From: Verrucomicrobiota bacterium | GTDB lineage: Bacteria > Verrucomicrobiota > Verrucomicrobiia > Limisphaerales > CANJSG01 | Reading direction: 5' to 3' | Assembly (NCBI GenBank): GCA_038209745.1 | Contig: JBBQXJ010000046.1 | Coordinates: 1 to 36,146 of the forward strand | DNA length: 36,146 nt | Part shown: one piece after another, positions 7,872 to 33,700 of the stretch | Numbering within the stretch: the stretch's first letter is position 1 | How the letters are laid out: the number at the start of each line of letters is the position of its first letter | Made by a program: the position numbers and the translations under genes | Notes under the pieces: model-generated | Database searches by the model: none | Seen by the model: only the letters and a program-made list of their open reading frames with translations | What the model was told of the DNA's origin: nothing

Positions 7872-7872
7872 C

Positions 7873-12233: not shown

Positions 12234-12304
12234 TGGGGGGCCGGCGCGGACGCCGGAGCAAAGCGGATTGTTGCTCCGTTTTGCTCTTTGCATAGGCGTG
12301 ATCT

Positions 12305-12331
12305 GGAATATCGGTTATTCCGTTTGTGCAT
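12305..12331. promoter_or_regulatory. Candidate LysR-type binding site in the divergent promoter
   Basis: GGAATA-N5-TATTCC palindrome (12305-12321) and a T-N11-A box ATTC-N7-GCAT (12317-12331) overlapping the LysR start codon. Confidence 0.4.
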
Positions 12332-13283
12332 GACGGGTCTCGAAGATTTGCGCCTCTTGCGGGCGTTTGTGCGGATCGCGGAGAGCGGAAGCATCTCCGC
12401 GGCGGCGCGGGTGCTGAACACCACCCAGCCCACGCTCAGCCGGCAACTCAGTCTGCTGGAGCGCACGGCCGGCGTGGTGCTGGTCCGCCGCGACACGCAT
12501 TCCATGAGCCTGACCGACGCCGGCCGCGCGTTGTTGTTGGATGCGCGGGAGTTGTTGGGTTTGGCGGAATCCGCTAGCCAACGGCTGCGTGCCGAGAAGG
12601 AGATTCCTCGCGGACACCTGCGGCTCGTGGCGGTGCTGGACTTCGGCCAATGGATGGTTCCCCGGCTGCTCGCCGGATTCCGCGGGCTGCACCCCGAGAT
12701 CACCGCCGAGCTGCATCTGATCAATCGCCCCAGCAAGTTCATCGAGGAAGGCTTTGACTGCGGGATCTTGGCCGGAGGCTTGACCGATACCTCCGTGGCG
12801 GCGCGCAAGGTGGCGGATCTCCGGCGGATGTTGGTGGCGTCGCCGGCGCTGTTGAAGAAGCTGGGGATTCCCGGCAGGCCCGTCGATCTGAAGAACTGGC
12901 CCTGGATGGGCGTGCTCCAGCCCCACTTCTATTCCCGGGACAACGTGGTCTTGATGCGCGGCAAGGAGCGCCAGACCCTCCGCTTCGAACCGGCGCTGAT
13001 CCTCGACAGCATGACGGCGCTGCGAGAAGCCGCCATTCTCGGAGCCGGCGTCACGGTCCAACCGGAATGGCTGGTCGGAGACGCTTTGGCCAATGGAAGC
13101 CTCGTTCGAATCTTGCCCGACTGGGACCTGCCGACCGTCGAATCCCACGTCGTCTTCACCGCCGGCCGACATCTGCCGCTGCGCGTGCGGACCTTCGTGG
13201 ATTTCGCCGCCGTGAAGATTCCCGAGCTGCTCGACCAGATGATCCATCCCGCGCTGAAGAACGGGCGCGGATTGGTTTCGTGA
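12330..13283 (+). CDS. LysR-family transcriptional regulator (CrgA-like substrate domain)
   Basis: HTH FVRIAESGSISAAARVLNTTQPTLSRQLSLLE..G..L..R; EEGFD, LVRILPDW; divergent from the efflux operon. Confidence 0.95.
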   Translation: MTGLEDLRLLRAFVRIAESGSISAAARVLNTTQPTLSRQLSLLERTAGVVLVRRDTHSMSLTDAGRALLLDARELLGLAESASQRLRAEKEIPRGHLRLVAVLDFGQWMVPRLLAGFRGLHPEITAELHLINRPSKFIEEGFDCGILAGGLTDTSVAARKVADLRRMLVASPALLKKLGIPGRPVDLKNWPWMGVLQPHFYSRDNVVLMRGKERQTLRFEPALILDSMTALREAAILGAGVTVQPEWLVGDALANGSLVRILPDWDLPTVESHVVFTAGRHLPLRVRTFVDFAAVKIPELLDQMIHPALKNGRGLVS

Positions 13284-13328
13284 CGGCGGGTATTGCCCGC
13301 CGCGCTCATTGCCCGCCACCATGCCGGC

Positions 13329-14285
13329 ATGGCAGACGCTGCACTGAAATCCCGGGCGACCCGCGGGCTGATCCTCGCGACAGCCTGTTGGGGGCTGAGC
13401 TTTCCGGTGATGAAGTCGCTCTTTCTCCTTCAGGAACCGGCGTTGCCCGGGCGAAGCACCTTCTTCGTTTCGGCCCTGTGTCTCGTCTACCGGTTTGGTC
13501 TCGCCGCGCTGGTGATGTCGGCCATGACCGCGCACACGCTGCGGAAACTGACCTGGAACGAGGTCTGGCACGGGCTGGGCGTCGGCGTGTTCGGCGGTGT
13601 CGGGATCTTTTTCCAGATGGACGCGTTGGCCAGCACCTCGGCCAGCACCTCGGCGTTTCTTACGCAGACCTATTGCCTGATCCTGCCGTGGTGGGTGGCG
13701 GCGAGGGACCGACGCTGGCCTTCCTGGCAATTGCTGTCGGGCAGCGTGCTGGTGGTCACGGGCATCGCCGTGCTGTCGGGAATGAGCGTGGGAGAACTCA
13801 GGATGGGCCGGGGAGAACTGGAGACCATCCTGGCCTCGGTCATCTTCGTCGGGCAGATCCTGTGGCTGGAGCGCCCACGGTTCGTCGAATGCCGAACAGA
13901 ACACACCACTCTGGTCATGTTCGCGGCGACGGCGCTGGTCTGCCTGCCGGTGGCCCTGGCCACGACGCGCGAGGCGGGCGATTGGGCGACGGCCTACAGC
14001 ACTCCCGGATCGTGGGTCCTGCTGGGGCTGCTGGTCGGCGTCTGCACGCTGGGAGCGTTTCTGCTGATGACCCGTTGGCAACGCCACGTGGGTGCGGCGT
14101 TGGCGGGATTGATCTATTGCTGCGAGCCGCTCTTCGCCAGCTTTGTGGCGCTCTTCGTGCCGGGCTGGATCAGCCAATCGACGGGCATCGCCTATCCCAA
14201 CGAAGAACTCACCCGGAACCTCCTGTTCGGCGGTGGTCTCATCCTCGCCGCCAACGCGCTGGCGCAGTGGCGGCCGAAGGGGTGA
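13329..14285 (+). CDS. EamA/DMT family transporter
   Basis: About 10 hydrophobic segments; WGLSFPVMK, YRFGLA, IYCCEPLFA motifs. Confidence 0.88.
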   Translation: MADAALKSRATRGLILATACWGLSFPVMKSLFLLQEPALPGRSTFFVSALCLVYRFGLAALVMSAMTAHTLRKLTWNEVWHGLGVGVFGGVGIFFQMDALASTSASTSAFLTQTYCLILPWWVAARDRRWPSWQLLSGSVLVVTGIAVLSGMSVGELRMGRGELETILASVIFVGQILWLERPRFVECRTEHTTLVMFAATALVCLPVALATTREAGDWATAYSTPGSWVLLGLLVGVCTLGAFLLMTRWQRHVGAALAGLIYCCEPLFASFVALFVPGWISQSTGIAYPNEELTRNLLFGGGLILAANALAQWRPKG

Positions 14286-16934: not shown

Positions 16935-17833
16935 GGTTTCGCGGGGGCGAGGGTTTTGGAGGCGACGAAGATCTCCTCCAGGGTGAGGGATTCGCAGCGG
17001 AGGTCTTCGGGCCCGTGGCTGCGGAGGGTGTCCATCAGCCGGTCGGTGGCGCCGTTGGCCAGGATCTCCATTTCGCGGCCGAAGTGGCGGACGCTGAGCG
17101 AGCCGGTCAGATCGAGTTGCGGCGGGGATTCGGCGAAACGGGCTCGGATCTTCCGGAAACGACTACGGGCTTCGTCGGCGTTCATGGTGAGCAGTTCCCG
17201 GCCGTGGTCGATGATGGTGAAGTCGTCGATCAGACCCTCGAACTCGGCGATCAGATGGGTGGAGACGAAGACGGTCCGGGCGCCTTCGCCGGCGGATTGG
17301 TAGGCGCCGATGACGGTCTCGATGAACTCGCGGCGGACGATGGGATCGAGGCCCGAGGTAGGTTCATCGAGCAGCAGCAGGTCGGGCTCGGGACAGACGG
17401 CGACTATGAGCGCGAGCTGGGTTTTCTGGCCCTTCGACATGCTGGCGGCATTCTGCGCCGGGTTCAGATCGAGGCGTTTCAGCAGGTCCGTTTGGAGGTC
17501 GCGGTTCCACTTCGGCCGGAAGCTGGCGAAGTAGTGGAGCGTGTCCATGACGGTCATCCATGGATAGAAGGCGACGGCGTCGGGCACGTAGCTCAGGCGG
17601 GACTTCACGGCGACTTCATCGCGGCGCGGATCGAGGCCGAAGACGCGGACCTGGCCGGAGTCGGGCTTCAGGAGGTTGAGCAGGCACTTGATGGTGGTGG
17701 TCTTGCCGGCGCCGTTGCGGCCGAAGAAGCCGTAGCAGCGGCCGGGCGGCACGGTGAGGCTGAGTCCGTTGACGGCGTCCTGTTTGCCGTAGCGTCGGAC
17801 GAGTTGGTCGATGGCGATGGCGGGGGTGTTCAT
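16931..17833 (-). CDS. ABC transporter ATP-binding protein (YtrB-like)
   Basis: Walker A GRNGAGKTT, signature MSKGQ, Walker B LLLLDE, STH; ATG 17833 overlaps the GntR stop. Confidence 0.95.
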   Translation of the reverse strand: MNTPAIAIDQLVRRYGKQDAVNGLSLTVPPGRCYGFFGRNGAGKTTTIKCLLNLLKPDSGQVRVFGLDPRRDEVAVKSRLSYVPDAVAFYPWMTVMDTLHYFASFRPKWNRDLQTDLLKRLDLNPAQNAASMSKGQKTQLALIVAVCPEPDLLLLDEPTSGLDPIVRREFIETVIGAYQSAGEGARTVFVSTHLIAEFEGLIDDFTIIDHGRELLTMNADEARSRFRKIRARFAESPPQLDLTGSLSVRHFGREMEILANGATDRLMDTLRSHGPEDLRCESLTLEEIFVASKTLAPAKP

Positions 17834-18237
17834 GGGGTCTCCTTGGCTGAAGCGGCTTTGTCTTGGAAGTAGTCGAGGCGTTCGTCGACCAGCTTGAGGA
17901 ACGCGGCCCGGTCCACCTGGAGGTGGTGGGCCGTGACGACCGCTTCGTCGATCTCGGTCATCAGCAGCTTCTGCTTCACCTGCTTGGTGAAGGGCGTCGC
18001 GGCATCGGTCAGGAAGCAGCCCTTGCCCGGCAGCGTCTCGATGACGCCCTGGCCCTCCAGTTCCGAATAGGCCTTGGCGACGGTGTTGCGATTGACGCGG
18101 AGCTGCTCGGCGAGAACGCGGACGGAGGGCAGGGGTTCGCCGTTGCGAATGACGCCGGAGGCGGCGGCGTAGCGGACTTGATCGACCAACTGGAGATAGA
18201 CCGGCTTGCCTGACTTGAAATCGATCTCGAGTAGCAT
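17830..18237 (-). CDS. GntR-family regulator, YtrA subfamily
   Basis: 135 aa; PVYLQLVDQV, LPSVRVLA, VNRNTVAKAYSELE..G; short C-terminus; heads an ABC operon. Confidence 0.93.
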   Translation of the reverse strand: MLLEIDFKSGKPVYLQLVDQVRYAAASGVIRNGEPLPSVRVLAEQLRVNRNTVAKAYSELEGQGVIETLPGKGCFLTDAATPFTKQVKQKLLMTEIDEAVVTAHHLQVDRAAFLKLVDERLDYFQDKAASAKETP

Positions 18238-18249
18238 GGGATTCCTTAA

Positions 18250-18287
18250 CTGTCATAGGACAGTATGACGGCTGGAGATTTGGTCAA
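18250..18287 (-). promoter_or_regulatory. Sigma70-type promoter with overlapping YtrA-type operator
   Basis: Minus strand TTGACC (18282-18287)-N16-TACTGT (18260-18265); palindrome GTCATA-N6-TATGAC (18252-18269) covers the -10; AAGGA just before the ATG. Confidence 0.7.
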
Positions 18288-18698: not shown

Positions 18699-19886
18699 AT
18701 GACCGAACAGAGACCTTCAGTTCCAGCCGGTTCCTTAGCCGGATTCGACTTTCTACCGCGGCAACGGCTGGTCTTCGGGGCCGGCACGGCGGCGCGTGTC
18801 GGTGAACTGGCGAAGGAGCTGGGCGCGACGCGGGTCCTGTTGGTGACCGATCCAGGCATCGTGGCGGCGGGCCACGCGGCGCGGGTGGAGACAAGCCTCA
18901 AGGAGGCGGGCCTGTCTGTCGCGGTCTTCGACCAGGTTCGGGAAAATCCCTCCACCGCCGACGTGGCGCGCTGCTTGAAGGTGGCCCAGGAGGCGCGGAT
19001 CGACTTCATCGTGGGACTGGGCGGCGGCAGTTCGATGGACACGGCCAAGGGGACGAACTTTCTCCTGACGAACGGCGGCGAGATGAAGGACTACTGGGGC
19101 GTCGGCAAAGCGACAAAGCCGATGCTGCCCATGATCGCGATTCCCACGACTTCAGGGACGGGCAGCGAATGCCAGTCGGCCGCGCTGATTGCGGACGAGG
19201 CGACGCACCAGAAGATGGCGTGCCTCGATCCCAAGACGATCGCGAAGGTGGCGTTGCTGGATCCGGACCTGACCGAGTCGTTGCCGAGGGGTGTGGCGGC
19301 CTGTACCGGGACCGACGCGATCGCCCACGCGGTCGAAACGGCGGTCTCGCGGAAGCGCACCCCATTGTCGCGAATGTTTTCCCGGGAGGCGTTCCGGCTC
19401 TGCGCGCACCGTTTGCCGGAGATTCTGGTCCGGGGAGCTTCGGCGGAAGCGCGGGGCGAGATGCTGCTCGGCGCGGCGTTTGCCGGCACGGCGATCGAGA
19501 ACTCGATGCTGGGGGCGGCCCATGCGGCGGCCAATCCGTTGACGGCCCACTATGGGATTGTCCATGGGCAGGCCGTGGGATTGATGCTGCCACACGTGGT
19601 GCGGTTCAACGGAGAGGAACCGGGTTGCGAAGAGGCCTACGCCGAACTGTTGGCCGCTCTCCGTCTCGGCCTCGATGCCGACAAGTCGGCGGCGGAGCAG
19701 CTGGCGGTCTTGCTGGAGCGGCTTCTTCGGGAAGCGGGTCTGAACGCGCGGCTGCGCGATCTGGGACTTCCCGAGTCGGCGCCGGCCAGCTTGGCTTTGG
19801 AAGCGTCGCAGCAATGGACGGCCACCTTCAATCCGCGGCCCGCCGACCCCAAAGATTTCCAGCGACTGTACCAGGCCGCGTGGTAG
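18699..19886 (+). CDS. Iron-containing alcohol dehydrogenase
   Basis: LLVTDPG, GGGSSMDTAK, PTTSGTGSE, DAIAHAVE, H...HG metal-ligand pattern. Start taken at ATG 18699. Confidence 0.93.
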   Translation: MTEQRPSVPAGSLAGFDFLPRQRLVFGAGTAARVGELAKELGATRVLLVTDPGIVAAGHAARVETSLKEAGLSVAVFDQVRENPSTADVARCLKVAQEARIDFIVGLGGGSSMDTAKGTNFLLTNGGEMKDYWGVGKATKPMLPMIAIPTTSGTGSECQSAALIADEATHQKMACLDPKTIAKVALLDPDLTESLPRGVAACTGTDAIAHAVETAVSRKRTPLSRMFSREAFRLCAHRLPEILVRGASAEARGEMLLGAAFAGTAIENSMLGAAHAAANPLTAHYGIVHGQAVGLMLPHVVRFNGEEPGCEEAYAELLAALRLGLDADKSAAEQLAVLLERLLREAGLNARLRDLGLPESAPASLALEASQQWTATFNPRPADPKDFQRLYQAAW

Positions 19887-19905
19887 AGCCGATGCGATGG
19901 TGAAA

Positions 19906-19943
19906 TGAAACGGCCGGCAACCCGAGGGTTGCCGGCCGTTTCA
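19906..19943. terminator. Bidirectional terminator-like hairpin
   Basis: Perfect 18-nt arms TGAAACGGCCGGCAACCC / GGGTTGCCGGCCGTTTCA between two convergent genes. Confidence 0.85.
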
Positions 19944-19965
19944 CTGTCCGCGACGGAGGGGACGG

Positions 19966-20352
19966 TTATTTGGCTTTGAGGATCTTCAACGTGTATTCGT
20001 CCGAGAGGAGGCTGTTCTTCTGCAGTTGGGGAAACCGCTTGTTTTCGAAATCAAACTTGAAGAAGTAGTGGACGAGAGAATCGCCGGGCTCGATCGGGAT
20101 GAACGCCTCCCAGCGGTCTTTCACGAAGGGCGTGCGCTTCATGGGATAGCTCTCGGTTCCCACCACCACATGTCCCTCCAGCGTGCTGGTCTTGAGGCTC
20201 TGGTCCCGGGTGTGCCACTGGGCTTCGATCGGGTAGAAACCGTCCGGGGCGCGGCTCATCTGGGACGAGGTGAGGTTCGTGATGGAGGAGCAGCCTGCAA
20301 AGAGGAGGGCGGCCAGGGCCACCGGCGCGGTCTTCATCAACGTCATTCGCAT
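19966..20352 (-). CDS. Hypothetical lipoprotein
   Basis: Signal peptide with lipobox LFAGC; beta-rich mature part; start uncertain (ATGs at 20352, 20346, 20337). Confidence 0.75.
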   Translation of the reverse strand: MRMTLMKTAPVALAALLFAGCSSITNLTSSQMSRAPDGFYPIEAQWHTRDQSLKTSTLEGHVVVGTESYPMKRTPFVKDRWEAFIPIEPGDSLVHYFFKFDFENKRFPQLQKNSLLSDEYTLKILKAK

Positions 20353-20497
20353 GGGTTTCAAATAGCCGGGCGCCGTTCGGGTTGTCGAGATGGGAGTTGT
20401 GCGGCCTCGGATGCAGCGGTTGTTTCCTGCGGCGACACGGAGTCGGCATCAAAGATGTTTTGCATCGGTGCCGGCCGGTGCGGAACATCGCCGCACG

Positions 20498-21628
20498 ATG
20501 TTGAAACGGACCCCCCTTTTCGAGGCCCACCAGCGGCTCGGCGGCAAACTGATCGAATTCGGCGGCTGGGAGATGCCGGTGCAATACACGTCGATCTCGG
20601 ATGAACACCATTGCGTCCGGAAGGCCGCCGGCGTTTTCGACATCTCCCACATGGGCGAGGTCTTCGTCGGGGGCGACGGGGCCGAGGCGTTCCTCAACGC
20701 CACTCTGACGAACGACGTCCGCAAGCTCGCCGTCGGGCTCGGGCAATACACCCTCATGTGCAACGAGGCCGGCGGGGTGATCGACGACCTCTACGTCTAC
20801 CACGTCGCCCCGGGCGAATACCTGCTCATCATCAACGCGTCCCGGATCGATGCCGATTGGGAGTGGTTGCAGGAGCGCCACCGCGCCTTCGCGGCAGCGG
20901 CGTCCGTCACGATGGACCAGGCTTCGGACCGGTTCGGGGCGATCGCCGTGCAGGGGCCCAGGGTCGCGGAATTCATCGACAAGGTGTTGCCCGGTCCGTC
21001 GCTGGCCGGCACCCCCGCCACGCTGGTGACGGATCTGGCCAAGAACCAGGTGGGCGACTGGATGGTCGATGGAAAACGGGTCTATGTGGGACGGACCGGC
21101 TACACGGGCGAAGACGGATTCGAGATCGTCGCGCCTGCGGAGACCATCGGCGATGTCTTCGACCGCGTGCTGGCGATCGGCCGGGATTTCGGAGTGCGGC
21201 CCAGCGGCCTCGGGGCCCGCGACACGCTCCGCACGGAAGCGTGTTTTCCGCTTTACGGACACGAACTCGACGAGAAGAGGACGCCGATCGAAGCCGGTGT
21301 CGGATTCTTCGTGTCGTTGGGCAAGGGCGACTTTGTCGGTCGTTCCGTGCTGGCCGGGCAGAAGGCCGACGGGGTCGCCCAACGCTGTGTCGCCTTCAAA
21401 ATGGTGGGTGCTGCGCCGCCGCCGCGACCGGGCTATGCCATCTTCGTCGGTGGCGAGTCCGTTGGCCTCGTGGTCAGCGGCACGCAGAGCCCGACCCTCG
21501 CGTGTGGCATCGGCATGGGCTATGTGCCTTCGGGCGTCGCCGTGCCGGGCACCGTCGTCGAGATCGAGATCCGTGGCCGACGCTTTCCGGCGGAGGTCGT
21601 TAAAAAGCCCCTCTACAAGAAGGCCTGA
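20498..21628 (+). CDS. gcvT: Glycine cleavage system aminomethyltransferase T
   Basis: LKRTPL, FGGWEMPVQY, FDISHMG, RTGYTGEDGFE, GLGARDTLRTEA, LYGHEL. Confidence 0.97.
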   Translation: MLKRTPLFEAHQRLGGKLIEFGGWEMPVQYTSISDEHHCVRKAAGVFDISHMGEVFVGGDGAEAFLNATLTNDVRKLAVGLGQYTLMCNEAGGVIDDLYVYHVAPGEYLLIINASRIDADWEWLQERHRAFAAAASVTMDQASDRFGAIAVQGPRVAEFIDKVLPGPSLAGTPATLVTDLAKNQVGDWMVDGKRVYVGRTGYTGEDGFEIVAPAETIGDVFDRVLAIGRDFGVRPSGLGARDTLRTEACFPLYGHELDEKRTPIEAGVGFFVSLGKGDFVGRSVLAGQKADGVAQRCVAFKMVGAAPPPRPGYAIFVGGESVGLVVSGTQSPTLACGIGMGYVPSGVAVPGTVVEIEIRGRRFPAEVVKKPLYKKA

Positions 21629-21716
21629 AGATCCAGCCGCATTTGGGGCGACGCCGAGGGAACAACGGCGTTGACCCCGCTCACACGCCGTCGTCAATCT
21701 CAGCCCCCAGAACACT

Positions 21717-22100
21717 ATGACCAACGTCCCCGCCGATCTGAAATACGCCAAATCCCACGAATGGGTCCGGGTGTCCGGTGACACCGCCACCGTCGGAATC
21801 ACCGACCACGCCCAGCACGAATTGACCGACATCGTCTTCGTGGAGCTCCCGGCCGCCGGCCGCACGGTCAAGGCCGGGGAAGCCTGCGCCGTCGTCGAGT
21901 CGGTCAAGACCGCCAGCGACATCTATTCGCCCGTCGGCGGCGAGATCCTGGAAGTGAACGGCGCGCTGGCTGGGAATCCGGCCCTCGTGAACAAGGAGTC
22001 CTATACCGGCGGCTGGTTCTACAAGGTCAAGCTGGCGAACCCCGCCGACGTGTCCGCGCTCATGAACGCCGACACCTACAAGTCGCAGATCGGCGGTTGA
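21717..22100 (+). CDS. gcvH: Glycine cleavage system H protein
   Basis: YAKSHEW, GITDHAQ, VESVKTASD (lipoyl-Lys), GWFYK. Confidence 0.97.
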   Translation: MTNVPADLKYAKSHEWVRVSGDTATVGITDHAQHELTDIVFVELPAAGRTVKAGEACAVVESVKTASDIYSPVGGEILEVNGALAGNPALVNKESYTGGWFYKVKLANPADVSALMNADTYKSQIGG

Positions 22101-22138
22101 AGAAGATGGTCACGGTGGTCGAGCCGCGGCTCCTGCCT

Positions 22139-22480
22139 TCAGTGCCCGCTCGGCCGCTTCCTCCGGAGCAAACTCAGCCCCACGATGGCGAAGCCGCCTG
22201 CGGCCACGGTCACCGTGTCGGTGACGAGGAACGTCACCGGGGCGGGTTGGCTGGGGAGATCGTCCGAGAAGCTCGTGAAGTCCGGTTCCGGCGCCGGGTG
22301 CTTGTCTGGACCCTTCCATGAAGCTCCCTTGGCCGGAGTCGCCGCGGTCAGCGGGAATCCGTCGTCGAGCGCAGTCGTCCGCCGGAACGATTCGCCGCCA
22401 TTCACCCAGAGAACAGCCAAGGAGAAGGTCAGCAACGCCGCTCCGGCGGTCCGCTGCGGATTATGGAACCATTTCCTCAT
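22139..22480 (-). CDS. Small hypothetical protein with N-terminal signal and C-terminal TM plus basic tail
   Basis: 113 aa from ATG 22480; hydrophobic N-region, Pro-rich middle, AAGGFAIVGLSLL-RRKR end. Confidence 0.55.
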   Translation of the reverse strand: MRKWFHNPQRTAGAALLTFSLAVLWVNGGESFRRTTALDDGFPLTAATPAKGASWKGPDKHPAPEPDFTSFSDDLPSQPAPVTFLVTDTVTVAAGGFAIVGLSLLRRKRPSGH

Positions 22481-22674
22481 CCGAGGGAGGTGATCGGCTG
22501 GAAGCGGACGCGCGTTGAGGCGAGAAATTGGGCATGGAGTGCCTTCAGTGTCGCTGGAGCGCAGATCCTGAAGCGGTTCCGCTTTTCTCGCGCATTGAAC
22601 TTTAGTGGCGGGTCGGCTACAGACTGGGCTCCCGGTTGTCGCGGAAAACCAACCGGCCCCGAACCAAAAACCGC

Positions 22675-23859
22675 ATGACCCGAAACGACGCATCCTTTGC
22701 CGGCTTCATCGACCGGCTTCAAACCCGGCTACGAGCCTTGGGCGCCAACGCCGGCACGACTCTCGCCGAAGACGAGTTCAACGGGTTTTCTTTGGAGCTG
22801 TTTCGCCTCCAGTTCGCTTTTGTGGGTCCCTACCGCCGATTGTGCGAAGCGCGCGGGATATTGCCCGACAACATTGTTGGCTGGAGGAATGTTCCCGCCG
22901 TCCCCGCCTCCGCGTTCAAGGAACTCGAACTCACCAGTCTGCCGCCCGAAGAGCGCGTCGCCTGCTTTCATTCCAGTGGCACGACCGGCTCCAAACCGAG
23001 CCGACACATTCATGGCACGGCCTCCCTCGCACTCTACGAGACGTCGTTGCTCGGGTGGTTTCGTCGGCATGTGCTGGGCGATTGGGACCGGCTCGCCGAG
23101 GACGAGGTCATCGGTCCGCTGGACAAGCCCGGCCTCCTGATCCTGACGCCGTCGGCGGACAAGGCGCCCCATTCGTCGCTGGCCCACATGTTCGAGACCG
23201 TGCGGCGCGAGCTCGGCGCCCGTGACTCCGTCTTCACCGGCCGAGTCGGCGCGGACGGCGGCTGGGAGCTGGACATCGAGGCCACGCTCTTCGGTCTGCG
23301 GAAATCCATGTGCGCAAACCGGCCCGTTACGTTGTTGGGAACCGCGTTTTCCTTCGTCCACCTGCTCGATCATTTCGCCGCGAACAACATCCGCTATCGC
23401 TTGGCCGAAGGTTCCCGCGTGATGGAGACCGGCGGTTACAAGGGCCGTTCCCGGGAATTGCCCAAGGCAGAACTCCACGCCCTGATCACGAAGCATCTCG
23501 GCATTCCCGCCGCCCGTATCGTGGTGGAATATGGGATGAGCGAGCTCGGTTCTCAGGCGTATGATCGAGGAGCGTGTTGGGGCGGGACGACGACGGACGA
23601 CGGATCCCAGATGCCGGATGCCGCAACGCGGACGCTCCACTTCCCTCCGTGGACCCGCGTGCGCTTGATCTCGCCCGAGACCGGAGAAGAATCGTCGATC
23701 GGCCAACCCGGACTGGTGAGGATCCATGACCTGGTCAACGTCGCGTCCGTCCAAGCGCTCCAGACCGAAGACCTGGGCATTGTCCGTGGCGGTGGCTTTG
23801 AACTGCTGGGCCGGGCCACTGCTGCGGAGGCGCGGGGATGCTCTTTGATGCCCGCATGA
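22675..23859 (+). CDS. LuxE-family acyl-protein synthetase
   Basis: FHSSGTTG, ETGGYKGR, YGMSEL, DLVN...LQTEDLG, FELLGR, C-terminal ARGCS with the conserved Cys. Confidence 0.88.
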   Translation: MTRNDASFAGFIDRLQTRLRALGANAGTTLAEDEFNGFSLELFRLQFAFVGPYRRLCEARGILPDNIVGWRNVPAVPASAFKELELTSLPPEERVACFHSSGTTGSKPSRHIHGTASLALYETSLLGWFRRHVLGDWDRLAEDEVIGPLDKPGLLILTPSADKAPHSSLAHMFETVRRELGARDSVFTGRVGADGGWELDIEATLFGLRKSMCANRPVTLLGTAFSFVHLLDHFAANNIRYRLAEGSRVMETGGYKGRSRELPKAELHALITKHLGIPAARIVVEYGMSELGSQAYDRGACWGGTTTDDGSQMPDAATRTLHFPPWTRVRLISPETGEESSIGQPGLVRIHDLVNVASVQALQTEDLGIVRGGGFELLGRATAAEARGCSLMPA

Positions 23860-23881
23860 CCGCGACCCGGGTTCTTTTTCC

Positions 23882-25123
23882 ATGGTGACCACCTCTCCCC
23901 ATCACACCCGCACGCTCTGGCTCATCGGTGCGCTCCACGCGTTCACCCATCTGAGCTCGGTCATCCTGCTTCCGCTGTATCTGCCGATCGTCCGCGACCT
24001 GAAACTCTCCGGTGAAAACGAGGCGACCGCCCTGGTCTCGGTCATCATGGTTTCCTACTTCCTGCCCAGCTACCTCATGGGCGTGCTCGCCGACAAGGTG
24101 TCGCGCAAAGGCCTGCTCGGCTGGGGGCTCGCCTTGAACGCGCTCGGCTTCATCGGTCTGAGCCAGGCGCCGTCCTACGGCTGGGCCATCGCGGCGTGTG
24201 TGCTGGCCGGGTTCGGCGGCAGTTTCTTCCATCCGGCCGCGACGGCGCTCATTGCCCGGTTGTTTCCGATCGGAACCGGCCGCGCCCTGGGCCGCATCGG
24301 CATCGGTGCGTCGGTCGGGTTCGCCATCGGTCCGACCTACGCGGGCTGGCGCGCGGAAGCGGCGGGTTGGAGGCAGCCCGTGCTGGAATTCGGCATCCTC
24401 GGTCTGGTGATGGCGGTCGCGTTTTGGTGGCTCGGCGAATCGGCGCCCAGTGTCCCGAAGAAGCCGGCCGCCGCCGCCCCGGCCTCTCCGCTGAAGCTCG
24501 GTTCATCGCAAACGCGGGTGCCGATGTTCCACGGTGCGGTACCGTGGATTTTGTTCCTGTTCGCGGCCCTGTTTTTTACCCTGCGCGACTTCGCCGGATT
24601 CGGCATGGGAAGCCTGGGGTCGTTGTTTCTCCAGCACGTCCACCACTTCTCGCTGAAGGAAACCGGACTGACGTTGAGCGGCCTTTTCCTCGCGTCGGCC
24701 ATCAGCAACCCGCTGTTCGGTTCCCTCTCCGACAAGCACCGCACCGGCTGGATCGCCTTCGTCCTGATCGCGGCGGCGATCCTGGTCGCGGTGGTGCCGT
24801 TCGTGCCGCCGGGCTCGATCGTCTTCGTTCTGCTGGCCTACGGTTTTTTCTTGATGGCGAGCTATCCGATGGTCGAGGCCGCCCTCATGCAAGTGGTGCC
24901 CGATGCCGTGCGCGGCCGCGTCTTTGGTCTGTGGATCACCATCGGCGGACTCATCAGCAACCTCTCCCACTGGATCATCGGCACCTGGGTGAAATCCCTC
25001 GGACCGGCCGCCGATGTGGAATCGAGCTACTATCCCGCCTACGGACTGCTCGCCGCGTTCGTCCTGGTCTCCATCGGTGGCGCGTTCTGTCTGAGAGCGC
25101 TGGCGAAGCGGCAGAGTCCTTAA
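23882..25123 (+). CDS. MFS transporter (Fsr-like)
   Basis: About 12 TM segments; GVLADKVSRK, FFHPAA, GSLSDK motifs. Confidence 0.92.
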   Translation: MVTTSPHHTRTLWLIGALHAFTHLSSVILLPLYLPIVRDLKLSGENEATALVSVIMVSYFLPSYLMGVLADKVSRKGLLGWGLALNALGFIGLSQAPSYGWAIAACVLAGFGGSFFHPAATALIARLFPIGTGRALGRIGIGASVGFAIGPTYAGWRAEAAGWRQPVLEFGILGLVMAVAFWWLGESAPSVPKKPAAAAPASPLKLGSSQTRVPMFHGAVPWILFLFAALFFTLRDFAGFGMGSLGSLFLQHVHHFSLKETGLTLSGLFLASAISNPLFGSLSDKHRTGWIAFVLIAAAILVAVVPFVPPGSIVFVLLAYGFFLMASYPMVEAALMQVVPDAVRGRVFGLWITIGGLISNLSHWIIGTWVKSLGPAADVESSYYPAYGLLAAFVLVSIGGAFCLRALAKRQSP

Positions 25124-25126
25124 CCC

Positions 25127-25261
25127 CAGATGGACACCGATGAACACAGACCGGGAACTCCCGAAGCCGCCGCAGCGATTGGACGGGCGGCTGTCTCCAA
25201 TTCGTTGGACCGTCAGTTTAGCATGGTCGGCACGACCTCTCTGTTCATCTGTGTCCATCTG
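25127..25261. repeat. Inverted-repeat element with 10-bp periodic arms (REP/MITE-like)
   Basis: CAGATGGACACCGATGAACA (25127-25146) matches the reverse complement of TGTTCATCTGTGTCCATCTG (25242-25261) at 19/20. Confidence 0.8.
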
Positions 25262-25278
25262 TCGTTGTTCCAAAACGT

Positions 25279-26643
25279 ATGATCCACGAACTGCCCAACT
25301 ATTTCCTCGCCGACCTGCCTCCGGAACCCCCACTGGCGGCTTCGACCGTGACCGAGGCGTGCCGGACCCTCCGGCGCAATCGCGCCAAGTATCTCGCCGA
25401 TCGTTCGACGGCCGACATGGTGCGTTCTCTCAGCCGGCTCGCGGCCGATTGGCTCGATCCGGAATTCTCCTTTCGGCAAACGGCCCTGGGCGAAGGTCCC
25501 GCCGCGACGGGCTTCTCGCGGGAAACCTTGGAGGCGGGGCTCGATGCGTTCTTCCGCTCCGTCACGCCCGAGTCGTTGAACACCCTCCTGCTCCAGGAGC
25601 TGGGCCACGTCGAGCGGCTCGATGGACCCGTGCAGTCGGACTTTGAATGGGAAACCGGCCGCGCGGCCATGGCCATCGGCCCGGAACTGATCGTCCACAT
25701 TGCCGGCGGTGTGCTGCCGAATCCGGTCTTCACCTCGATGATCCACGGCCTGTTGGTACGTTCGGCGCAGTTCGTGAAGTGCGCATCCGGCACCGCGTTC
25801 CTTCCGCGCCTCTTCGCGCATTCGATCTATCAACTGGACTCCAAGCTCGCCTCCTGTCTCGAAGTCGCCGAATGGCGCGGCGGCAGCGAAACCCTGGAGC
25901 ACGCGCTCTTCGCCGAGGCCGACATCGTGACCGCCATGGGCAGCGACGAGACCCTCGAAGCGCTGCGCAATCGGGTGCCCGGGAAGCTTCTCGGGCATGG
26001 CCATCGCGCCAGCTTCGGCTACGCCACGCTCGAAGCCGTTTCGGGCCTGAACGTGGCCAAGCTCATCACGCGCGCCGCCGAAGACGTCGCGGCTTGGGAC
26101 CAGCTCGGCTGCCTCTCGCCGCATGTGATCTACGTGGAAGGCGGCGGCAAGGTGACGCCCGAACAGTTCGCCGAACGGTTGGTCAACGAGCTCAAGATCC
26201 TGGAAGGGCGACGTCCACGCGGGTCCTTGTCCACCGAGGCCGCCGCAGCCCTCGCCATCCGTCGATCCGTCTTCGAAATCCGAGCCTCCCAGTCCGCCGA
26301 GACGCGGCTCTGGACCAGCTCCGGGACCTCGGCCTGGACGGTCGTCTTCGAGGCCGAGCCGGTCTTCTCGCTGTCTTGTGGACACCGCTTCATCTTCGTC
26401 AAACCCGCTCCGTCGCTGACCGAAGTCCTGCGTCAGGCCGAGATGCAGCGCGGCAAGATCTCCACCGTCGGACTGGCGGCCACCGAGGACCGCGCCCCGG
26501 TCCTCGTCCGCGAACTGGCCCGGTGGGGCGTGACGCGGGTCTGCCCGCTTGGCGAGATGCAGAACCCGCCGCTGACGTGGCGCCACGACGGACGCCCCGC
26601 ATTGGGCGACCTGGTCACGTGGGTGGATTGGGAACAGGGATGA
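25279..26643 (+). CDS. LuxC-family acyl-CoA/acyl-protein reductase
   Basis: [35 protein letters not shown] (catalytic Cys), [11 protein letters not shown]...HDG motifs. Confidence 0.9.
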
Positions 26644-27011
26644 ACATCATGGAACTACGAAAGACATTTCACTTCGAGGCCGCCCATCGGCTCCCGCTGT
26701 TGGCGGAGGGCCACAAATGCTGGCGTCTGCACGGCCACAGCTTCGCGGTCGAGATCGCGGTCGAAGGACCGGTCGATCCGAAGCTCGGCTGGGTCATGGA
26801 CTACGCCGACATGAAGGCCGCCTTCAAACCGCTCTGGGACCAGCTCGACCACAACTACCTCAACGAGCTGCCCGGCTTGGAAAACCCCACCAGCGAAATC
26901 GTCGCGGTCTGGATCTGGGACCGCTTGAAGCCGAGGTTGCAGTTGTTGACTGAAGTGGTCGTCGCCGAGACCTGCACCGCGCGCTGCGTGTATCGGGGTG
27001 AGAAGAACTGA
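26640..27011 (+). CDS. queD: 6-carboxy-5,6,7,8-tetrahydropterin synthase
   Basis: [16 protein letters not shown] (C-x3-HGH), LDHNYLN, NPTSE, ETC; ATGA overlap with the luxC-like stop. Confidence 0.93.
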
Positions 27012-27045
27012 TTCGCGGGCGCAGAAGGGCTGTCGGCGATACGCG

Positions 27046-27768
27046 TCAGCCCAGGGCCAGAATGTCGTGAAGGATTTCCGGAGGGTGCCCGGCTCCAGAT
27101 TTCACTGCGATGGCGACGGCGTTTTTCCCAGACAGACGCCGGCGCCAAAAGAACCAATCGGCGGGGTCGTCGTTCAAGACCTGGCCGAATCGCACCTGCG
27201 TTTCGTGTTCGGGAAGGAGATGGAAGGCGCAAGCTTTGAGGTCCAATCCCAGACCTTCACCGCGCGCTTTGGCGTATGCTTCCTTCAGCGTCCAGAAATC
27301 ATAGAAGCGAGCGGTGCGTTCTTCCGGCGGCAACTGGTCCAGAGCGTGGAGTTCCGTTGCGGAAAAGACCGTTTCGGCGGCGTCCAGCAGATCGGCGTGG
27401 GCGCAGATTCGCTCCACGTCGACTCCGATTGCGGAGGTTTGGCTCGTCGCGCAGACGATCATGCCGTCGGTGTGGGCGAGGTTGAAGCGGATGCCGGTTG
27501 CGGCCTCGGGCCGCGCGACCTCGGGCTTGCCGAACGCGCTTCGGCGGAAACGCCATTCGCCCGGCGCTATCGGTAGACTCCGGGACAGGGCGAGCCGCAC
27601 AACGGTGCGGCCGAGGAGGAACCGGGCACCGTCGGTTGGCTTTCGGAAGCGCCGGGCTTCTCCCCGTTCTTCGGCGGAGACGACGTTCAGAGACTCGTGG
27701 AGGTCGGCCAAGGCAACGGGATCTCCCACTTGCAAGCTGAAGAGGTGGATGAGTCCGGGACGGTTCAA
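27046..27768 (-). CDS. Sfp-type 4'-phosphopantetheinyl transferase
   Basis: GKP, FNLAHT, IGVDVE, WTLKEAYAKARGEG; probable TTG start overlapping the NRPS stop (TTGA 27765-27768). Confidence 0.92.
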   Translation of the reverse strand: MNRPGLIHLFSLQVGDPVALADLHESLNVVSAEERGEARRFRKPTDGARFLLGRTVVRLALSRSLPIAPGEWRFRRSAFGKPEVARPEAATGIRFNLAHTDGMIVCATSQTSAIGVDVERICAHADLLDAAETVFSATELHALDQLPPEERTARFYDFWTLKEAYAKARGEGLGLDLKACAFHLLPEHETQVRFGQVLNDDPADWFFWRRRLSGKNAVAIAVKSGAGHPPEILHDILALG

Positions 27769-30700
27769 GAGGAACCTCTGTTCCTGCGGGCCATGACTTC
27801 GCCGATCGCTTTGGCCAGCGCCGCGCGATGGGGTTCTCGCTGGAACATCGAGTGGTGTTCGCCTTCGACAGGGACGATCTCCACACCGTCCGGGTGCAGG
27901 CGGTTCCAGCCGAGGCTTTCGTCCATGCCGTGGAGTTCGTTTTCTTTGGCGTGGATCGCCCGGAAAAGCGCCACCGATCCGGGAAGGGGTTTGGCCCGAA
28001 GATTGGCGAAAATCTTTTGGTAGATCGCCAGCATGCACCCAACGGTGATGCCTTCTCCCTCGTCGTCGATCAGGGAGGTCACGGCGTGCATGTGGGGCTC
28101 CGGAGGAAGCTTCTGAAACCAGGCCCAGAGGCGGCGCTTCTGACGGACGACCACCTCCCAGGTAAGCTTCCAGGTCGCGCGAAGGTTTGATCGAAACGTG
28201 GAAAAGACCTCTTTCCAGGGGCCTTCGACGGGGTGTTGCCTCCACAACTGAGCAACGCGGTGATTCCAGATCTGGAAGATGGACGGATCGTAGGCCCAGG
28301 CGTCGAAGAGGAAAAGATCGTCGACCCGGTGACCGGAACGGCGGAGTTGGCGGGCGGCTTCGTGAGCCATCAATCCGGCGAAGGAGAACCCGGCCAAGAT
28401 GCACCCGGAGGCGTCGGGCGATTTCCGGATCTCCGCCGTATAGGGGGCGACGAGTTCTTCGAGCGTTGGCAGGGCCGAGGTCCGGCCTTCCGCGGCCGCG
28501 GCATGCCATTCCTTTCGCCAGGGGACCTGGATGCCGAAGACCGGCCCCGCTTCATGGAACAAGCTGGCCAGATTCCACTCGTCCGGTCCGGCATAGAGGA
28601 AGAACACCGGCCTGGTTCCTGAGCCTCGCCGCAGCGGCACGATGCGGGCCGTCGGAGCCGTTCCGGGCCCGCGAGAAGCGAGGCAATGGGCGAGCTTCTC
28701 GATCGTCGGGTGGTTGAAAAGGTCGACTGTGCCGAGACCCGCTATGAGGTCTCGGTTGATCCGGTGCACCATCCTCACTGCGAGCAGGGAATGTCCGCCG
28801 AGCGAAAAGAAGTCCTCCTCGATCCCGATCCCGGACAGTCCGAGCAGTTCCTCCCAGATCGCCGCGAGCCGGCTCTCCATTTGGGATCGCGGCGCGGTGA
28901 CGGCGGCTTCGGGTCGTGCATTCCATCCGTCCAACGCGCCCAAGGCGCGGCGGTCGATCTTGCCGTTGGGGGTCAGCGGAAACGCGGCCACGGCGAGGAA
29001 TGCCGATGGCTGCATGTGGTCTGGAAGTTTACCGGCGAGGAATTGGCGCAGTTCGCCTTTGGTCGGAGCCGGCTCGGACCGTGCCACGAAACAGGCGGCG
29101 AGGGTCTTGCCCCGGGGGTCGGTCCGGACGATCGCCGCGACCTGGCCCACGTGCGGGTGGGAAGCGAGGACCGCTTCCAGTTCGCCGAGTTCGACGCGGA
29201 AGCCGCGGATCTTCACCTGGTCGTCCACGCGTCCGAGAAACTCGATCGATCCGTCCGGTCGATAACGGGCGCGGTCTCCGGTTCGATAGAGACGTGAACC
29301 CGGTCGTGAGGAGAACGGATCGGCGACGAATTTTTCCCGGGTCAGCTCCGGGCGATGGAGATAGCCACGGGCGAGGCCGTCGCCGCCGATGAAGAGTTCC
29401 CCGGGCATGCCCACCGGCACGGGTTGGAGGTGCGCGTCGAGCAGATGGACGCGGGTGTTGGCGATTGGCCGGCCGATGGGTACGGAACGTTCCGCGTCGT
29501 CGGACTCGTGGATGTCGTGGCAGCAGGCGAAGGTGGTGCTCTCGGTCGGGCCATAGCCGTTGATCAAACGGCAGCCGACCAATGCCTTCCGTGCGCGGAC
29601 GACGTGGGAGGGCGACAACGCGTCGCCGCCGGCGAGCAATTGGCGCAGCGGCTTCAGGTCGTCCAGCCGTTCCTCGACCATCAGATGGAACAGTCCCGAC
29701 GTAAGCCAGAGGGTGGTGATACCGCGCGCTTTGATTTCACGGCCGATGTCCTCCAGACCCGGGCGGCCGGGAGGCATTAGCACCAATCGGCCCCCGTTCA
29801 GCAGCGGACCCCATATCTCGAAGGTGGAGGCGTCGAAGGCCAGGGGCGCCATCTGGAGGAAGACTTCGTCCGGACCGAACGATGCGTAGCGGGTGCCCTT
29901 GACCAGACGGACCACGCCACGATGGGGAATTTCGACGCCCTTGGGTTGCCCGGTCGAACCGGAAGTGTAGATCACGTAGGCGAGATCGTCCGGCGAGCCG
30001 CCGCGAAGTCTGGTCGAGGGTTTTGCGTCGGGCGGCTCGTCGTCGAGATCGAGCGTCGCCGGGGGCTTGAACGACCCGTCTTCGGCTGCGGCTGCAATCC
30101 ATCGGGCGGCTTCGGAGTGGAGACGCGTTTGGGTCAGCAACACCCTGGGCGAGGCGTCGCGCAACATGAAGACGAGACGTTCGCGCGGGTAGTCGGGATC
30201 GAGCGGAAGGTAGGCGCCGCCGGCCTTGAGGATCGCAAGCAGGCCCACGACCATCTCCATGGATCGCTCGACACTGATCCCCACCAACACATCGGGGCCC
30301 ACGCCGAGATCGACGAGGGACTTGGTCCAACGTTCTGCCTGTTGGTTCAACTCGAAGTAGGTGAGGGATTGTTCGCCGATTTGAACCGCCACCCGGTCAG
30401 GGGTGCTGCGCGCCTGTTGTTCGAAGAGTTCATGCACCCGCCGGTCGCGCGGGTAGTCGTCCGCAGTGTCGTTCCATTCGACCACGAGCTGGTGGCGTTC
30501 CGCTTCGGAGAGAAGGGGCAGAAACGAGATCCGCTGCTGCGGTTGGGCCACGACGCTTTGCAGCAGCGCCATGAGATGCTTTGCCCATCGGGCGGCGGTA
30601 GCGGGCAGGAACAGTCCGGAGTCGTATTCGAGAAACCCTTCGAGGCCATCGCCGGTCTCCGTCAGGACGAGGGTGAGGTCGAACTTCGCCGTGCCGGTGC

Positions 30701-33700
30701 AGACCGGGTCCCAGCGCCATGAGATCCCGTCCATTTGTCCCGTGCTTTGGGGCGTGTTCTGCAGCACGAAGACGGATTGGAAGAATGGGTTGGTGCCCGC
30801 GGTCCGACCGGGGAGCAGCGTTTCGACGAGTTGGCCGAAGGGCAGGTCCTGGTGGTCCTGGGCCTCCCACGCGGTGTGGTGGACCTCGGCGAGGAGAGCC
30901 TCGAACGTCGGATTGTCGGCGCAGTCGGCCTTCAGCGGAAGGACGTTCACGAACATCCCGACGAGATCCTCAGTCTCGACCCTCGTCCTTCCCGCAAGCG
31001 GCGTGCCGACAACCACGACCGGTTGGCCGGAGAGGCGGTGCAGCAAAACATGGAATGCCGAGAGGAGGACCGAGAACAAGTTGCAGCCGCGGCTGAGCGC
31101 CAGCCCCTTCAGGCCGGCGGCGAGCGATGGGGATATACGCACCGGTTCCCAGGCTCCGGGCCGCCGTCGTTCTGAGTTGCGGGGCCGATCCGCAGGCAGT
31201 TCGAGTTCCGCCGGAGCCTCCGCAAGTTGATCGCGCCAGTAGGCGAGATGGCCGGCGGCTGGCGCGGAACGCTGGCCGTCGCGCTGCCAGCCGGCGAAGT
31301 CGGCGAACCGGAAGCCCTTTTCCGGAAAAGAAGCAGGTCTGTTCGCGCGAAAGGAGTTGTAGCTCTTGGCCAAATCCCGCGCGATCACGCCCAGCGACCA
31401 GCCGTCGCAAACGGCGTGATGGGCGACCAGAAGAAGGATGTGGAATTGCCCGCCGGTTTGAATCAGGTGGGCCCGGAAGAGGGGGCCATGGGCGAGATCG
31501 AAAGGCGCAATGGCGCGGTCCGTCAGGACTTGATCCAGGCTTTTTGAAGCCTCCGGTTCGGTCCCTTTAACGAACGCCAATTCCTCGAAGCTGCAGGAGC
31601 CGGCTGGATGGACCGTCTGCATGAGTCCGCTGCCATGCAGGGTGAAAGTGGTCCTCAGCGGTTCGTGGCGACGAACGAGAGCGTCCAGCGCGGCCCGAAG
31701 CGACGGTTTGTCCAAAGAGCCGTCGAGATGGATCGCCGTGGGCAGATTGTAGGCCACGTTCCCCGGATCGAGCTGGTCCAGTAGCCAGAGCTGTTGCTGG
31801 GCGGTGGAGGCGGGAAACTGTCCAAGCTCGGTGCCCGTATTCTGCACTGGCATTTCCGGGGCGTGCGCCGCTCCCCGCTCGGGGGCGTCGACGAACGCCC
31901 CGAGCCGAGCAATCGTGGGGTGCTCCAAAAGAGCGCGGACGGGAAGATCGATCGCGAACGCGGCGCGAACGCGGGAGACGACGCGGACCGCCTTCAAGGA
32001 ATGGCCTCCCAGTTCGAAGAAATTCTCGTTCGCGGCGACGGTTTTCAGACCGAGGATCTCGCCCCAGATTTCGGCGAGTCCGATTTCCGTGGGGGTGCTG
32101 GGCGGAGTTTGTCCGCCAGCGGTGCGGACCCTGTCCTTGGGCAGCGCAGCCAGGGCTCTGCGGTCGACCTTGCCGTTCGGGGTCAGCGGCATCGCCGGCA
32201 CCCCAACGATGAACGACGGGATCATGTGTTCGGGAAGCCTGGATCGGATGAAAGCCCGCAGCGTGACGGGTGCGACCGCTTCGGGGGATTCTCCTTCCAC
32301 GTAGGCGACGAGACAATTCTCGCCGTCTTCTTCCTGGGCCGTGACCAGCGCCTGACGGACTCCGGGAGATGTTTCCAAAACGGCCTCAATTTCCCCGAGT
32401 TCGATGCGGAAGCCGCGGATCTTCACCTGGTGGTCGAGGCGACCGAGGAACTCGATGTTGCCGTCGTCGAGGTATCGGGCGAGGTCGCCGGTGCGATAAA
32501 GCCGCGCCCCCGGCGACAGGTCGAAGGGATTGGAGACAAACTTCTCGGCCGTGAGATCGGTCCTGTTGAGGTAGCCCCGGGCCAGGCCTTCGCCGCCGAG
32601 GAAAAGCTCTCCCGGAACACCGATGGGCTGGGGTTGGAGATGGCGGTCCAGGATGTAGGCCTGCGTGTTGGCGATGGGTCGTCCGATGGTCGTCGGGCCC
32701 CCGCGGGTCCGCAGGGTGAAGGTCGAATAGACCGTGTCCTCGGTGGGGCCGTAGAGGTCGTAGACTTTCTGGACGTTCGACTCCGCGTAGATCCTTTCGA
32801 CCAACGCGGCGGGCAATGGTTCTCCGGCGAGATTGACCGTCTGGACCGATGGAGGAAGCGGCGAGGATCGGAGCAGTTCGGCCAGGGCCGATGGCACGGT
32901 GTTGACCAGCTTGACCTCGCTCCGTGCGGGCAGCGTCGGAAGCTGGAGGATGTTGTCCGCCAGCAGGACCGTCCCGCCCAAGCTGAGTGGAACGAAGAGT
33001 TCGAACACCGAAAGGTCGAAGCAGATGGAGGTCGCGAACAGGACTCCGGCGAGTTCCTCGGGGCCAAAGACGGTCCGGGCCCATTCGACGAGGGCGACCA
33101 CGCTGCGATGTTCGATGGCCACGCCCTTCGGCCGACCGGTCGATCCCGAGGTGAAGATGACGTAGGCAAGATCACCCGGGCTGCCGGTGCAGACCCAATC
33201 CCCTTCGCTCTCCTCGGAAACGTCCAGCGAATCCAGACAGACAACCTGCGCACGGTGGTTAGGCAGGGCGGAAAGGTGGCGATCCTCGGTCAACAATATC
33301 CCGCAGTCTGCGTCCTCCACGATGAACGCGATGCGATCCCGGGGGTAGGCGGGGTCCAGCGGGACGTAGGCGGCCCCCGTCTTCAGGATCGCCAAGAGCC
33401 CGATCACCATGGCCCGCGAGCGGTCCATGAATATGCCGACCCGCCTTTCCGGACCCGCTCCAAGCCGCGTCAGGTGGTGGGCCAAACGATTGGCGGCCGA
33501 GTTGAGCTCGCGATAGGTGAACCGCTTCTCGCCCGCGACGAGCGCGATCGCGTTCGGCGTCCGATCCGCCTGGGCCTCGATCAATTGATGCAGACAGCGA
33601 TCGCGCGGATACGCGAGGGACGTGTCGTTCCACTCCACGAGGACCCGGCGCCGTTCCGTTTCGGGCATCAGCGGGAGTTCCGCAACACGCATCTGCGGAT

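Follow-up and report, generated by a model that had tools for sequence, protein, structure and literature searches.

Which acid does a LuxE/LuxC pair reduce when no luciferase gene stands beside it, and why is the gene for the reductase coupled to queD? These questions are raised by a stretch of 36,146 nucleotides from a Verrucomicrobiota bacterium (contig JBBQXJ010000046.1; the whole stretch is called the window here), in which four co-oriented open reading frames (ORFs), luxE-MFS-luxC-queD, occupy positions 22675-27011 (MFS, a transporter of the major facilitator superfamily). A preliminary description of the window had read them as a unit for the reduction of an acid to an aldehyde outside bioluminescence, and comparative genomics supported this core reading. 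Our analysis suggests, with a probability of roughly 0.6, that luxE-(MFS)-luxC-queD is half of a route to 7-aminomethyl-7-deazaguanine (preQ1) independent of QueC and QueF: LuxE and LuxC would reduce 7-carboxy-7-deazaguanine (CDG), an aminotransferase would make preQ1, and a leader RNA before luxE would regulate the operon.

The luxE-(MFS)-luxC-queD unit

The source genome (G000) is a 4.58-Mb draft, 92% complete, of which the window is contig C46. Pfam and NCBIfam scores confirmed the four ORFs and their common orientation:

22675-23859, + strand: luxE-like acyl-protein synthetase, adenylate-forming (PF04443, 49.8 bits)
23882-25123, + strand: MFS transporter, not always present in the unit (PF07690 MFS_1, 136.8 bits)
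25279-26643, + strand: luxC-like acyl-thioester reductase, similar to aldehyde dehydrogenases (PF05893, 225.5 bits)
26640-27011, + strand: queD, 6-carboxy-5,6,7,8-tetrahydropterin synthase (PF01242 PTPS, 121.5 bits; TIGR03367, 102.9 bits)

The overlap of queD with the luxC stop codon, an ATGA at 26640-26643, was read directly in the letters of the sequence; a second in-frame ATG of queD, at 26649, is the position at which the alignment of most homologues starts. The queD product lies above the equivalog threshold of the NCBIfam QueD model TIGR03367 (102.9 bits, cut-off 89.25), and its translation carries KCWRLHGH, which agrees with the QueD signature, Cys-x3-His-Gly-His. It is the sole PTPS-family gene of the source genome (a single PF01242 match). 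The LuxC-like protein scored 45.2 bits against an NCBIfam LuxC equivalog cut-off of 750, and the LuxE-like protein 49.9 bits against a LuxE equivalog cut-off of 550, both far below; no NCBIfam model attained its cut-off with the MFS protein.

The catalytic cysteines, reported in the preliminary description as kept in both enzymes, coincide in alignment with those of the solved LuxC-LuxE complex, 7xc6. The sequence DQLGCLSP of the LuxC-like protein (within WDQLGCLSP) pairs with DQQACFST of the LuxC chain 7xc6_A, and the C-terminal ARGCSL of the LuxE-like protein (...ARGCSLMPA) pairs with QKGCSL of the LuxE chain 7xc6_E. The LuxC cysteine motif was retained in all 80 orthologues, and the C-terminal GC of LuxE in all 72 orthologues whose alignment extends to the C-terminus. 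No luciferase or LuxD family match was obtained among the 16 window ORFs scanned, in agreement with the earlier statement that luxA, luxB and luxD are absent from the window. In the genome as a whole, where luciferase families and not LuxD were searched for, there is one generic gene of the Bac_luciferase family, on another contig.

The conservation of the unit was analyzed in 41 genomes covering 35 families of the order (Limisphaerales), in 29 loci of relatives (the window itself not counted) and in 80 further species-level loci. The profile search that yielded the 80 loci returned only members of the order, some of them as records under other names. Several loci with the cluster are filed under names of metagenome-assembled genomes of other phyla (Bifidobacterium, Chitinophaga pinensis, Methylomirabilota, Limnocylindria), and mislabelling or mis-binning of the records is the probable cause.

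A LuxC orthologue was present in 40 of the 41 genomes, at 48-66% identity; one is also recorded for the cultured Pedosphaera parvula Ellin514. The linkage of queD to luxC, seen at first in the window alone, was recovered in related genomes: queD is the next gene after luxC in 74 of the 80 species loci (median gap, 44.5 nt) and adjoins luxC in 27 of the 29 relatives' loci. In four of the six species loci without queD next to luxC, the contig ends within 115 nt. The luxE gene is upstream of luxC in 69 of the 80 species loci; among the relatives it immediately precedes luxC in 17 of 29 loci, and in a further 11 of the 29 the MFS gene stands between the two. The MFS gene was found between luxE and luxC in 39 of the 80 species loci, as an optional member. 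The outcome that would have refuted the preliminary description, a lack of such linkage in related genomes, thus did not occur.

These synteny counts define the conserved unit as luxE-(MFS)-luxC-queD. The arrangement is far beyond chance, being conserved across an order, and the unit counts among the core features of this order of Verrucomicrobiota.

Queuosine genes in the order and in the phylum

TGT inserts preQ1 into tRNA on the way to queuosine, and QueA requires preQ1-tRNA as its substrate. QueE, TGT and QueA were each found in 40 of the 41 genomes of the order. Full-length QueC was found in only two, G011 and G024 (213 and 207 bits; the next best match in the sample had 35 bits), and QueF in the same two genomes, adjacent to their QueC. 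In the source genome both QueC and QueF were searched for and neither was found. This gap had been overlooked in the preliminary description, as had the conserved RNA leader before luxE. In the queuosine part of the genome-wide checks which that description had proposed (luxAB, luxD and queCEF), QueC and QueF were not found, and QueE is encoded on contig C27 (see below). Since QueD, QueE, TGT and QueA are present and QueC and QueF were not found, the cells should make CDG and use preQ1 without the known enzymes between them.

In G011 (contig C67, 26492-27642) and G024 (contig C680, 5118-6007) a compact canonical queF-queC cluster occurs besides luxC; a queE-like piece accompanies it in G011.

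A folate role of queD was also considered. PTPS-III (COG0720) is a replacement for FolB, expected in genomes without FolB. FolB was found in 39 of the 41 genomes, the source genome included, and the assignment of queD as a PTPS-III of folate synthesis was therefore rejected.

The queE gene of the source genome lies on contig C27 together with an aminotransferase gene:

6895-9244 of contig C27 (locus L040), - strand: queE, then an orphan class-III aminotransferase (queE assigned by QueE models; no aminotransferase NCBIfam cut-off reached)

The QueE protein scored 236 bits on TIGR04349, the equivalog cut-off of which is 300, and all its top matches were QueE models; since it matches its model in two stretches, it carries an insertion. 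The aminotransferase gene is directly downstream of queE on the same strand, and its product scored 305 bits on the best NCBIfam model, against a cut-off of 552. ArgD, HemL, BioA and two more paralogues are encoded elsewhere in the genome and show 27-32% identity to the queE-linked aminotransferase. The pair was retained in 26 of the 29 relatives' loci and is likely to be a second operon of the same pathway.

In one locus of the order (L111, 5041-10186) the leader RNA and luxE-MFS-luxC-queD are followed by a divergent radical SAM gene of the QueE family, with 70-88 bits to QueE models.

To follow the distribution beyond the order, 150 further genomes of the phylum, each with a completeness of 90% or more, were searched for LuxC (PF05893) at E<=1e-12; at this level the comparison rests on QueC, the search for QueF having been made in the order. 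QueC was found in 120 of the 150 genomes and LuxC in six: all four genomes of family f42, G048, and G100 with a weak match of 57 bits. The last of these, G100, does have QueC. Among the 30 genomes in which QueC was not found, seven matched the QueE model (the four of family f42, G048, G104 and G174), and five of these seven have LuxC. The QueE match of G174 is partial, at 50 bits, and resembles the second match seen in many genomes that bear QueC. A survey of ten distant LuxC relatives gave no informative names.

QueD, TGT and a luxE-luxC pair occur in family f42 as well, besides an orthologue of the queE-linked aminotransferase at 45-46% identity, which is well above the level of the paralogues. 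In G048, contig C420 ends in queE followed by residues 27-210 of the aminotransferase, and contig C120 opens with residues 302-476 of that protein, after which come luxE (39% identity), luxC (24%) and queD (65%). The simplest reading is a single five-gene cluster, queE-aminotransferase-luxE-luxC-queD, split by the assembly. A metagenome scan with the LuxE of G048 returned six loci, none of which bridges the two contigs.

The leader RNA before luxE

Alignment of the sequences upstream from luxE revealed a conserved element immediately before, and including, the start codon:

22631-22677, + strand: conserved leader RNA, riboswitch candidate (alignment of luxE leaders, covariation in P1)

The alignment comprises 65 distinct sequences. 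These have in common a hairpin of 5-8 bp (P1), a loop U-N-GCGG-AAAAC, a variable A-rich stretch and AAAACCGC placed directly against the AUG. In the window, P1 is formed by CCGGUUG and CAACCGG, loop L1 has the U, followed by GCGG, L2 is AAAAC, L3 is A-rich, and CCGC abuts the AUG of luxE. Both sides of P1 change at five of its eight pairs, with a covariation score of 0.098 against 0.059 for shuffled alignments; none of 500 shuffles reached the observed score. The GCGG and CCGC segments are complementary and could pair as the second helix (P2) of an H-type pseudoknot that would cover the start site.

From this alignment we built a covariance model, which found exactly one copy in 60 of the 80 species loci (1.25 Mb), always on the strand of luxE. 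When only the 62 loci that contain the luxE 5' end plus upstream sequence are counted, the leader was found in 60. In the whole source genome a pattern search gave one full copy only. The motif was also sought, with the pattern and with the covariance model, upstream of queE, in the loci of family f42 and in those of G048, and it was not found there.

In four loci (L086, L150, L024 and L028) luxE has upstream sequence in which the leader motif was not detectable. Many leaders (L108, L111, L125, L129, L139, L091, L105, L107 and L140) have an extra small hairpin inserted in L3, with a sequence that differs by lineage; this hairpin could be a second regulatory feature.

A review (PMC11625349) characterises class-I preQ1 riboswitches by an H-type pseudoknot in which L1 carries a U, L3 is rich in A, and the cytosine that confers specificity belongs to an 'AC' step preceding the 3' strand of P1. 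These three sequence features, the L1 U, the 'AC' and the A-rich L3, are present and invariant in our leader alignment. Rfam searches of window positions 19800-27600, of the queE locus, of 15 relatives' loci and of two 100-nt leader stretches (the last at E<=10) reported no riboswitch, and the leader is therefore called a preQ1-I-like candidate riboswitch and not a member of the family.

An ORF of 184 amino acids with no family match (22139-22693, - strand) faces both the luxE leader and the gap of 574 nt that follows gcvH. It is probably not a gene, because the leader RNA covers its 5' end on the opposite strand.

A possible route to preQ1 and its alternatives

The route that we propose would begin as the known pathway does. 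GTP would be converted to dihydroneopterin triphosphate, from which QueD, encoded in the window, would form 6-carboxy-tetrahydropterin, and QueE, encoded on contig C27, would form CDG. LuxE would then adenylate the carboxylate of CDG with ATP and bind the acyl group to its C-terminal cysteine in thioester linkage; LuxC would accept this group on its own cysteine and, with NAD(P)H as reductant, produce 7-formyl-7-deazaguanine. From this aldehyde the class-III pyridoxal phosphate aminotransferase encoded beside queE would form preQ1, and TGT, QueA and a putative epoxyqueuosine reductase would complete queuosine. To go from the acid to the aminomethyl group requires exactly activation, reduction and transamination, and the chemistry of the proposed enzymes fits these three steps. 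The intermediate aldehyde is a known compound, described as a hydrolysis product released by QueF mutants (PMC13740343).

The leader may sense preQ1 or a close relative of it and block the initiation of luxE translation. The predicted P2 reaches as far as the start codon, so that a bound ligand would switch off translation of luxE-(MFS)-luxC-queD. Transporters occur in preQ1 regulons, and by analogy the MFS protein might import a 7-deazaguanine, which is a guess. The gene identities, the synteny, the distribution among genomes, the conserved cysteines and the covariation of P1 are thus observed, and the substrate, the sequence of the reactions, the cofactors, the ligand of the RNA and the import by the MFS protein are proposed. 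The more specific version of the proposal, in which LuxE, LuxC and the aminotransferase replace QueC and QueF by way of free 7-formyl-7-deazaguanine and the reductase operon is under feedback control by an uncatalogued relative of the class-I preQ1 riboswitch, seems to us only slightly better than an even bet.

The preliminary description had named the carboxy-pterin or a downstream deazapurine acid as speculative substrates. The comparative genomics makes the deazapurine acid the best supported of the two; the carboxy-pterin is left as part of a rival reading, discussed below. The same description had proposed that the iron-dependent alcohol dehydrogenase (Fe-ADH) encoded at 18699 reduces the aldehyde further. 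Its gene is near the cluster in none of the 80 loci and is therefore not part of the unit; it is more likely that the aldehyde is transaminated by the queE-linked aminotransferase than that it is reduced.

Several observations weigh against the proposed route. The acids on which LuxE/LuxC pairs act are varied, and the two protein sequences contain nothing that singles out CDG. The genomes are drafts, that of the source included, so that the absences of QueC and QueF have the meaning of 'not found'. Two genomes, G011 and G024, carry both systems, QueC/QueF and luxC; their queF-queC genes could be due to horizontal transfer, to redundancy or to contamination of the bins (6% contamination in G024). 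Beyond the order, the pathway genes of family f42 are scattered, and the join of the two contigs of G048 is only inferred, because the contig ends share no overlap. G104 has QueE, and neither QueC nor LuxC was found in it; an assembly gap is possible in this case, since four of the five genomes of its family have QueC. With regard to the RNA, the four P2 pairs are 100% complementary but never vary, and the pseudoknot is therefore without covariation support. Searches with 100-nt leaders against Rfam, including RF00522 and the preQ1 classes, gave no match at E<=10. Finally, the queE-aminotransferase operon has no leader motif.

The surroundings of the unit in the window have a bearing on one of the alternatives. 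The genes gcvT and gcvH lie upstream of the unit, and downstream, convergent to the cluster, is the following region:

27046-35084, - strand: two-module nonribosomal peptide synthetase (NRPS; C-A-T-C-A-T-TE, 2439 aa) and a phosphopantetheinyl transferase (PPTase) of HetI/Sfp type

Together with the Fe-ADH, gcvT, gcvH, the PPTase and the NRPS were considered as members of the unit and rejected, as the 80 loci show none of them close to the cluster. Farther upstream, an ORF of 620 amino acids without Pfam match (12315-14177, - strand) is located between an efflux operon of the resistance-nodulation-division (RND) type (6432-12293) and an ABC-2 transporter pair (14286-18256).

The genes found could be arranged in another order of steps, in which LuxE and LuxC would reduce 6-carboxy-tetrahydropterin, the aminotransferase would convert the resulting aldehyde to 6-aminomethyl-tetrahydropterin and the QueE homologue would contract the ring to give preQ1. 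This would account for the physical coupling of luxC to queD and not to queE, evident from the ATGA overlap and from 74 of the 80 loci, for the coupling of the aminotransferase gene to queE, and for a QueE that in this order carries an insertion and falls below the equivalog cut-off (236 against 300). We consider such an order unlikely. QueD and QueE score as ordinary family members, the QueE of G048 with 277 bits, and QueE would have to accept a substrate without the carboxylate; gene order in operons is a poor guide to reaction order, and the five genes appear contiguous in G048. It is also improbable that the unit makes some other product derived from a 7-deazaguanine or a pterin, for instance an aldehyde or an amine that serves as cofactor, signal or secondary metabolite, while TGT depends on preQ1 taken up from the surroundings, possibly by way of the MFS protein. 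The MFS gene does stand inside the operon in 39 of the 80 loci, and an NRPS and a PPTase adjoin the cluster in the window. But the NRPS and the PPTase are next to the unit in 0 of 80 loci, and the MFS gene is missing from half of the loci while QueA is present in 40 of 41 genomes. The YhhQ family, the only one of the known importers that was searched for, was found in one of the 41 genomes. An order-wide core set that is exactly complementary to QueC/QueF suits a housekeeping tRNA modification better.

A plain fatty-acid reductase that supplies lipid or wax synthesis with fatty aldehydes, and beside which queD stands by chance, would be in line with the activity of the sole characterised LuxC/LuxE pair (7xc6), which reduces fatty acids. 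We regard it as very improbable: LuxC scored 45 where the equivalog cut-off is 750, and LuxE 50 where it is 550, no luxA or luxB is nearby, queD is still linked to luxC in G048, a member of a different family in which LuxC identity has fallen to 24%, the leader RNA resembles a preQ1 switch, and the distribution of the pair is complementary to that of QueC. The reduction of CDG on the way to preQ1 is the reading that we prefer.

Full-text literature searches, subscription journals and supplements not being covered, gave nothing that links LuxC, LuxE or an aldehyde/transaminase step to queuosine synthesis, and a 2026 paper on the QueC family makes no mention of Verrucomicrobia, LuxC or LuxE. In the literature found, 7-formyl-7-deazaguanine occurred solely as the product of hydrolysis by QueF mutants. 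The unit probably belongs to a hitherto undescribed preQ1 route. To our knowledge, queuosine synthesis is regarded as solved, with one route from CDG to preQ1, and the nitrile reduction in that route is the only biological one known.

If the proposal is true, it would explain tRNA modification in lineages that have QueD, QueE, TGT and QueA and lack QueC and QueF, and it would alter predictions of which members of soil and water communities make queuosine precursors and which scavenge them. It would correct the automatic names 'acyl-CoA reductase' and 'hypothetical protein' found on these proteins and give LuxE/LuxC a first function on a heteroaromatic acid. The leader would be a riboswitch variant absent from current RNA catalogues, and the enzymes would offer biocatalysis a natural cascade from acid to amine.

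The canonical preQ1 pathway, FolE-QueD-QueE-QueC-QueF, as outlined in PMC5372724, shares with the order its start, QueD and QueE leading to CDG, and its end, TGT and QueA, each present in 40 of 41 genomes. It differs in the middle: QueC, which converts CDG to the nitrile preQ0, and QueF, which reduces the nitrile to the amine, were not found in 39 of the 41 genomes, and the proposed substitute would pass through an aldehyde instead of a nitrile, with the nitrogen supplied by transamination.

The leader has in common with the class-I preQ1 riboswitch (RF00522; PMC11625349) the predicted form of a small H-type pseudoknot, the predicted pairing of a 3' tail with the loop at the translation start, and the location before queuosine genes. 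In contrast, its P1 is longer, its L3 often has an inserted hairpin, and its P2, an invariant GCGG/CCGC, would end directly at the AUG and not at a Shine-Dalgarno sequence.

The LuxC-LuxE fatty acid reductase of Photobacterium phosphoreum (PDB 7xc6; PMC9157457) belongs to the same two Pfam families as the unit. Both catalytic cysteine positions are common to the two pairs, and the same chemistry would be expected of the unit: activation with ATP, a thioester relay and reduction with NAD(P)H to the aldehyde. The relationship to the 7xc6 chains is very distant (E 4.6e-5 and 3.3e-10). The unit differs from the luminous pair in having no luciferase partner, in its linkage to queD and in the candidate RNA switch that precedes it, and its proposed substrate is a 7-deazapurine carboxylate, not a fatty acid.

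Cascades of a carboxylic acid reductase (CAR) and an omega-transaminase are known from biocatalysis, and they follow the same logic as the proposed route, from acid to aldehyde to primary amine. CAR is a single chain with a phosphopantetheine arm, whereas here the reductase would consist of two proteins, LuxE and LuxC, and the cascade would be a natural housekeeping pathway.

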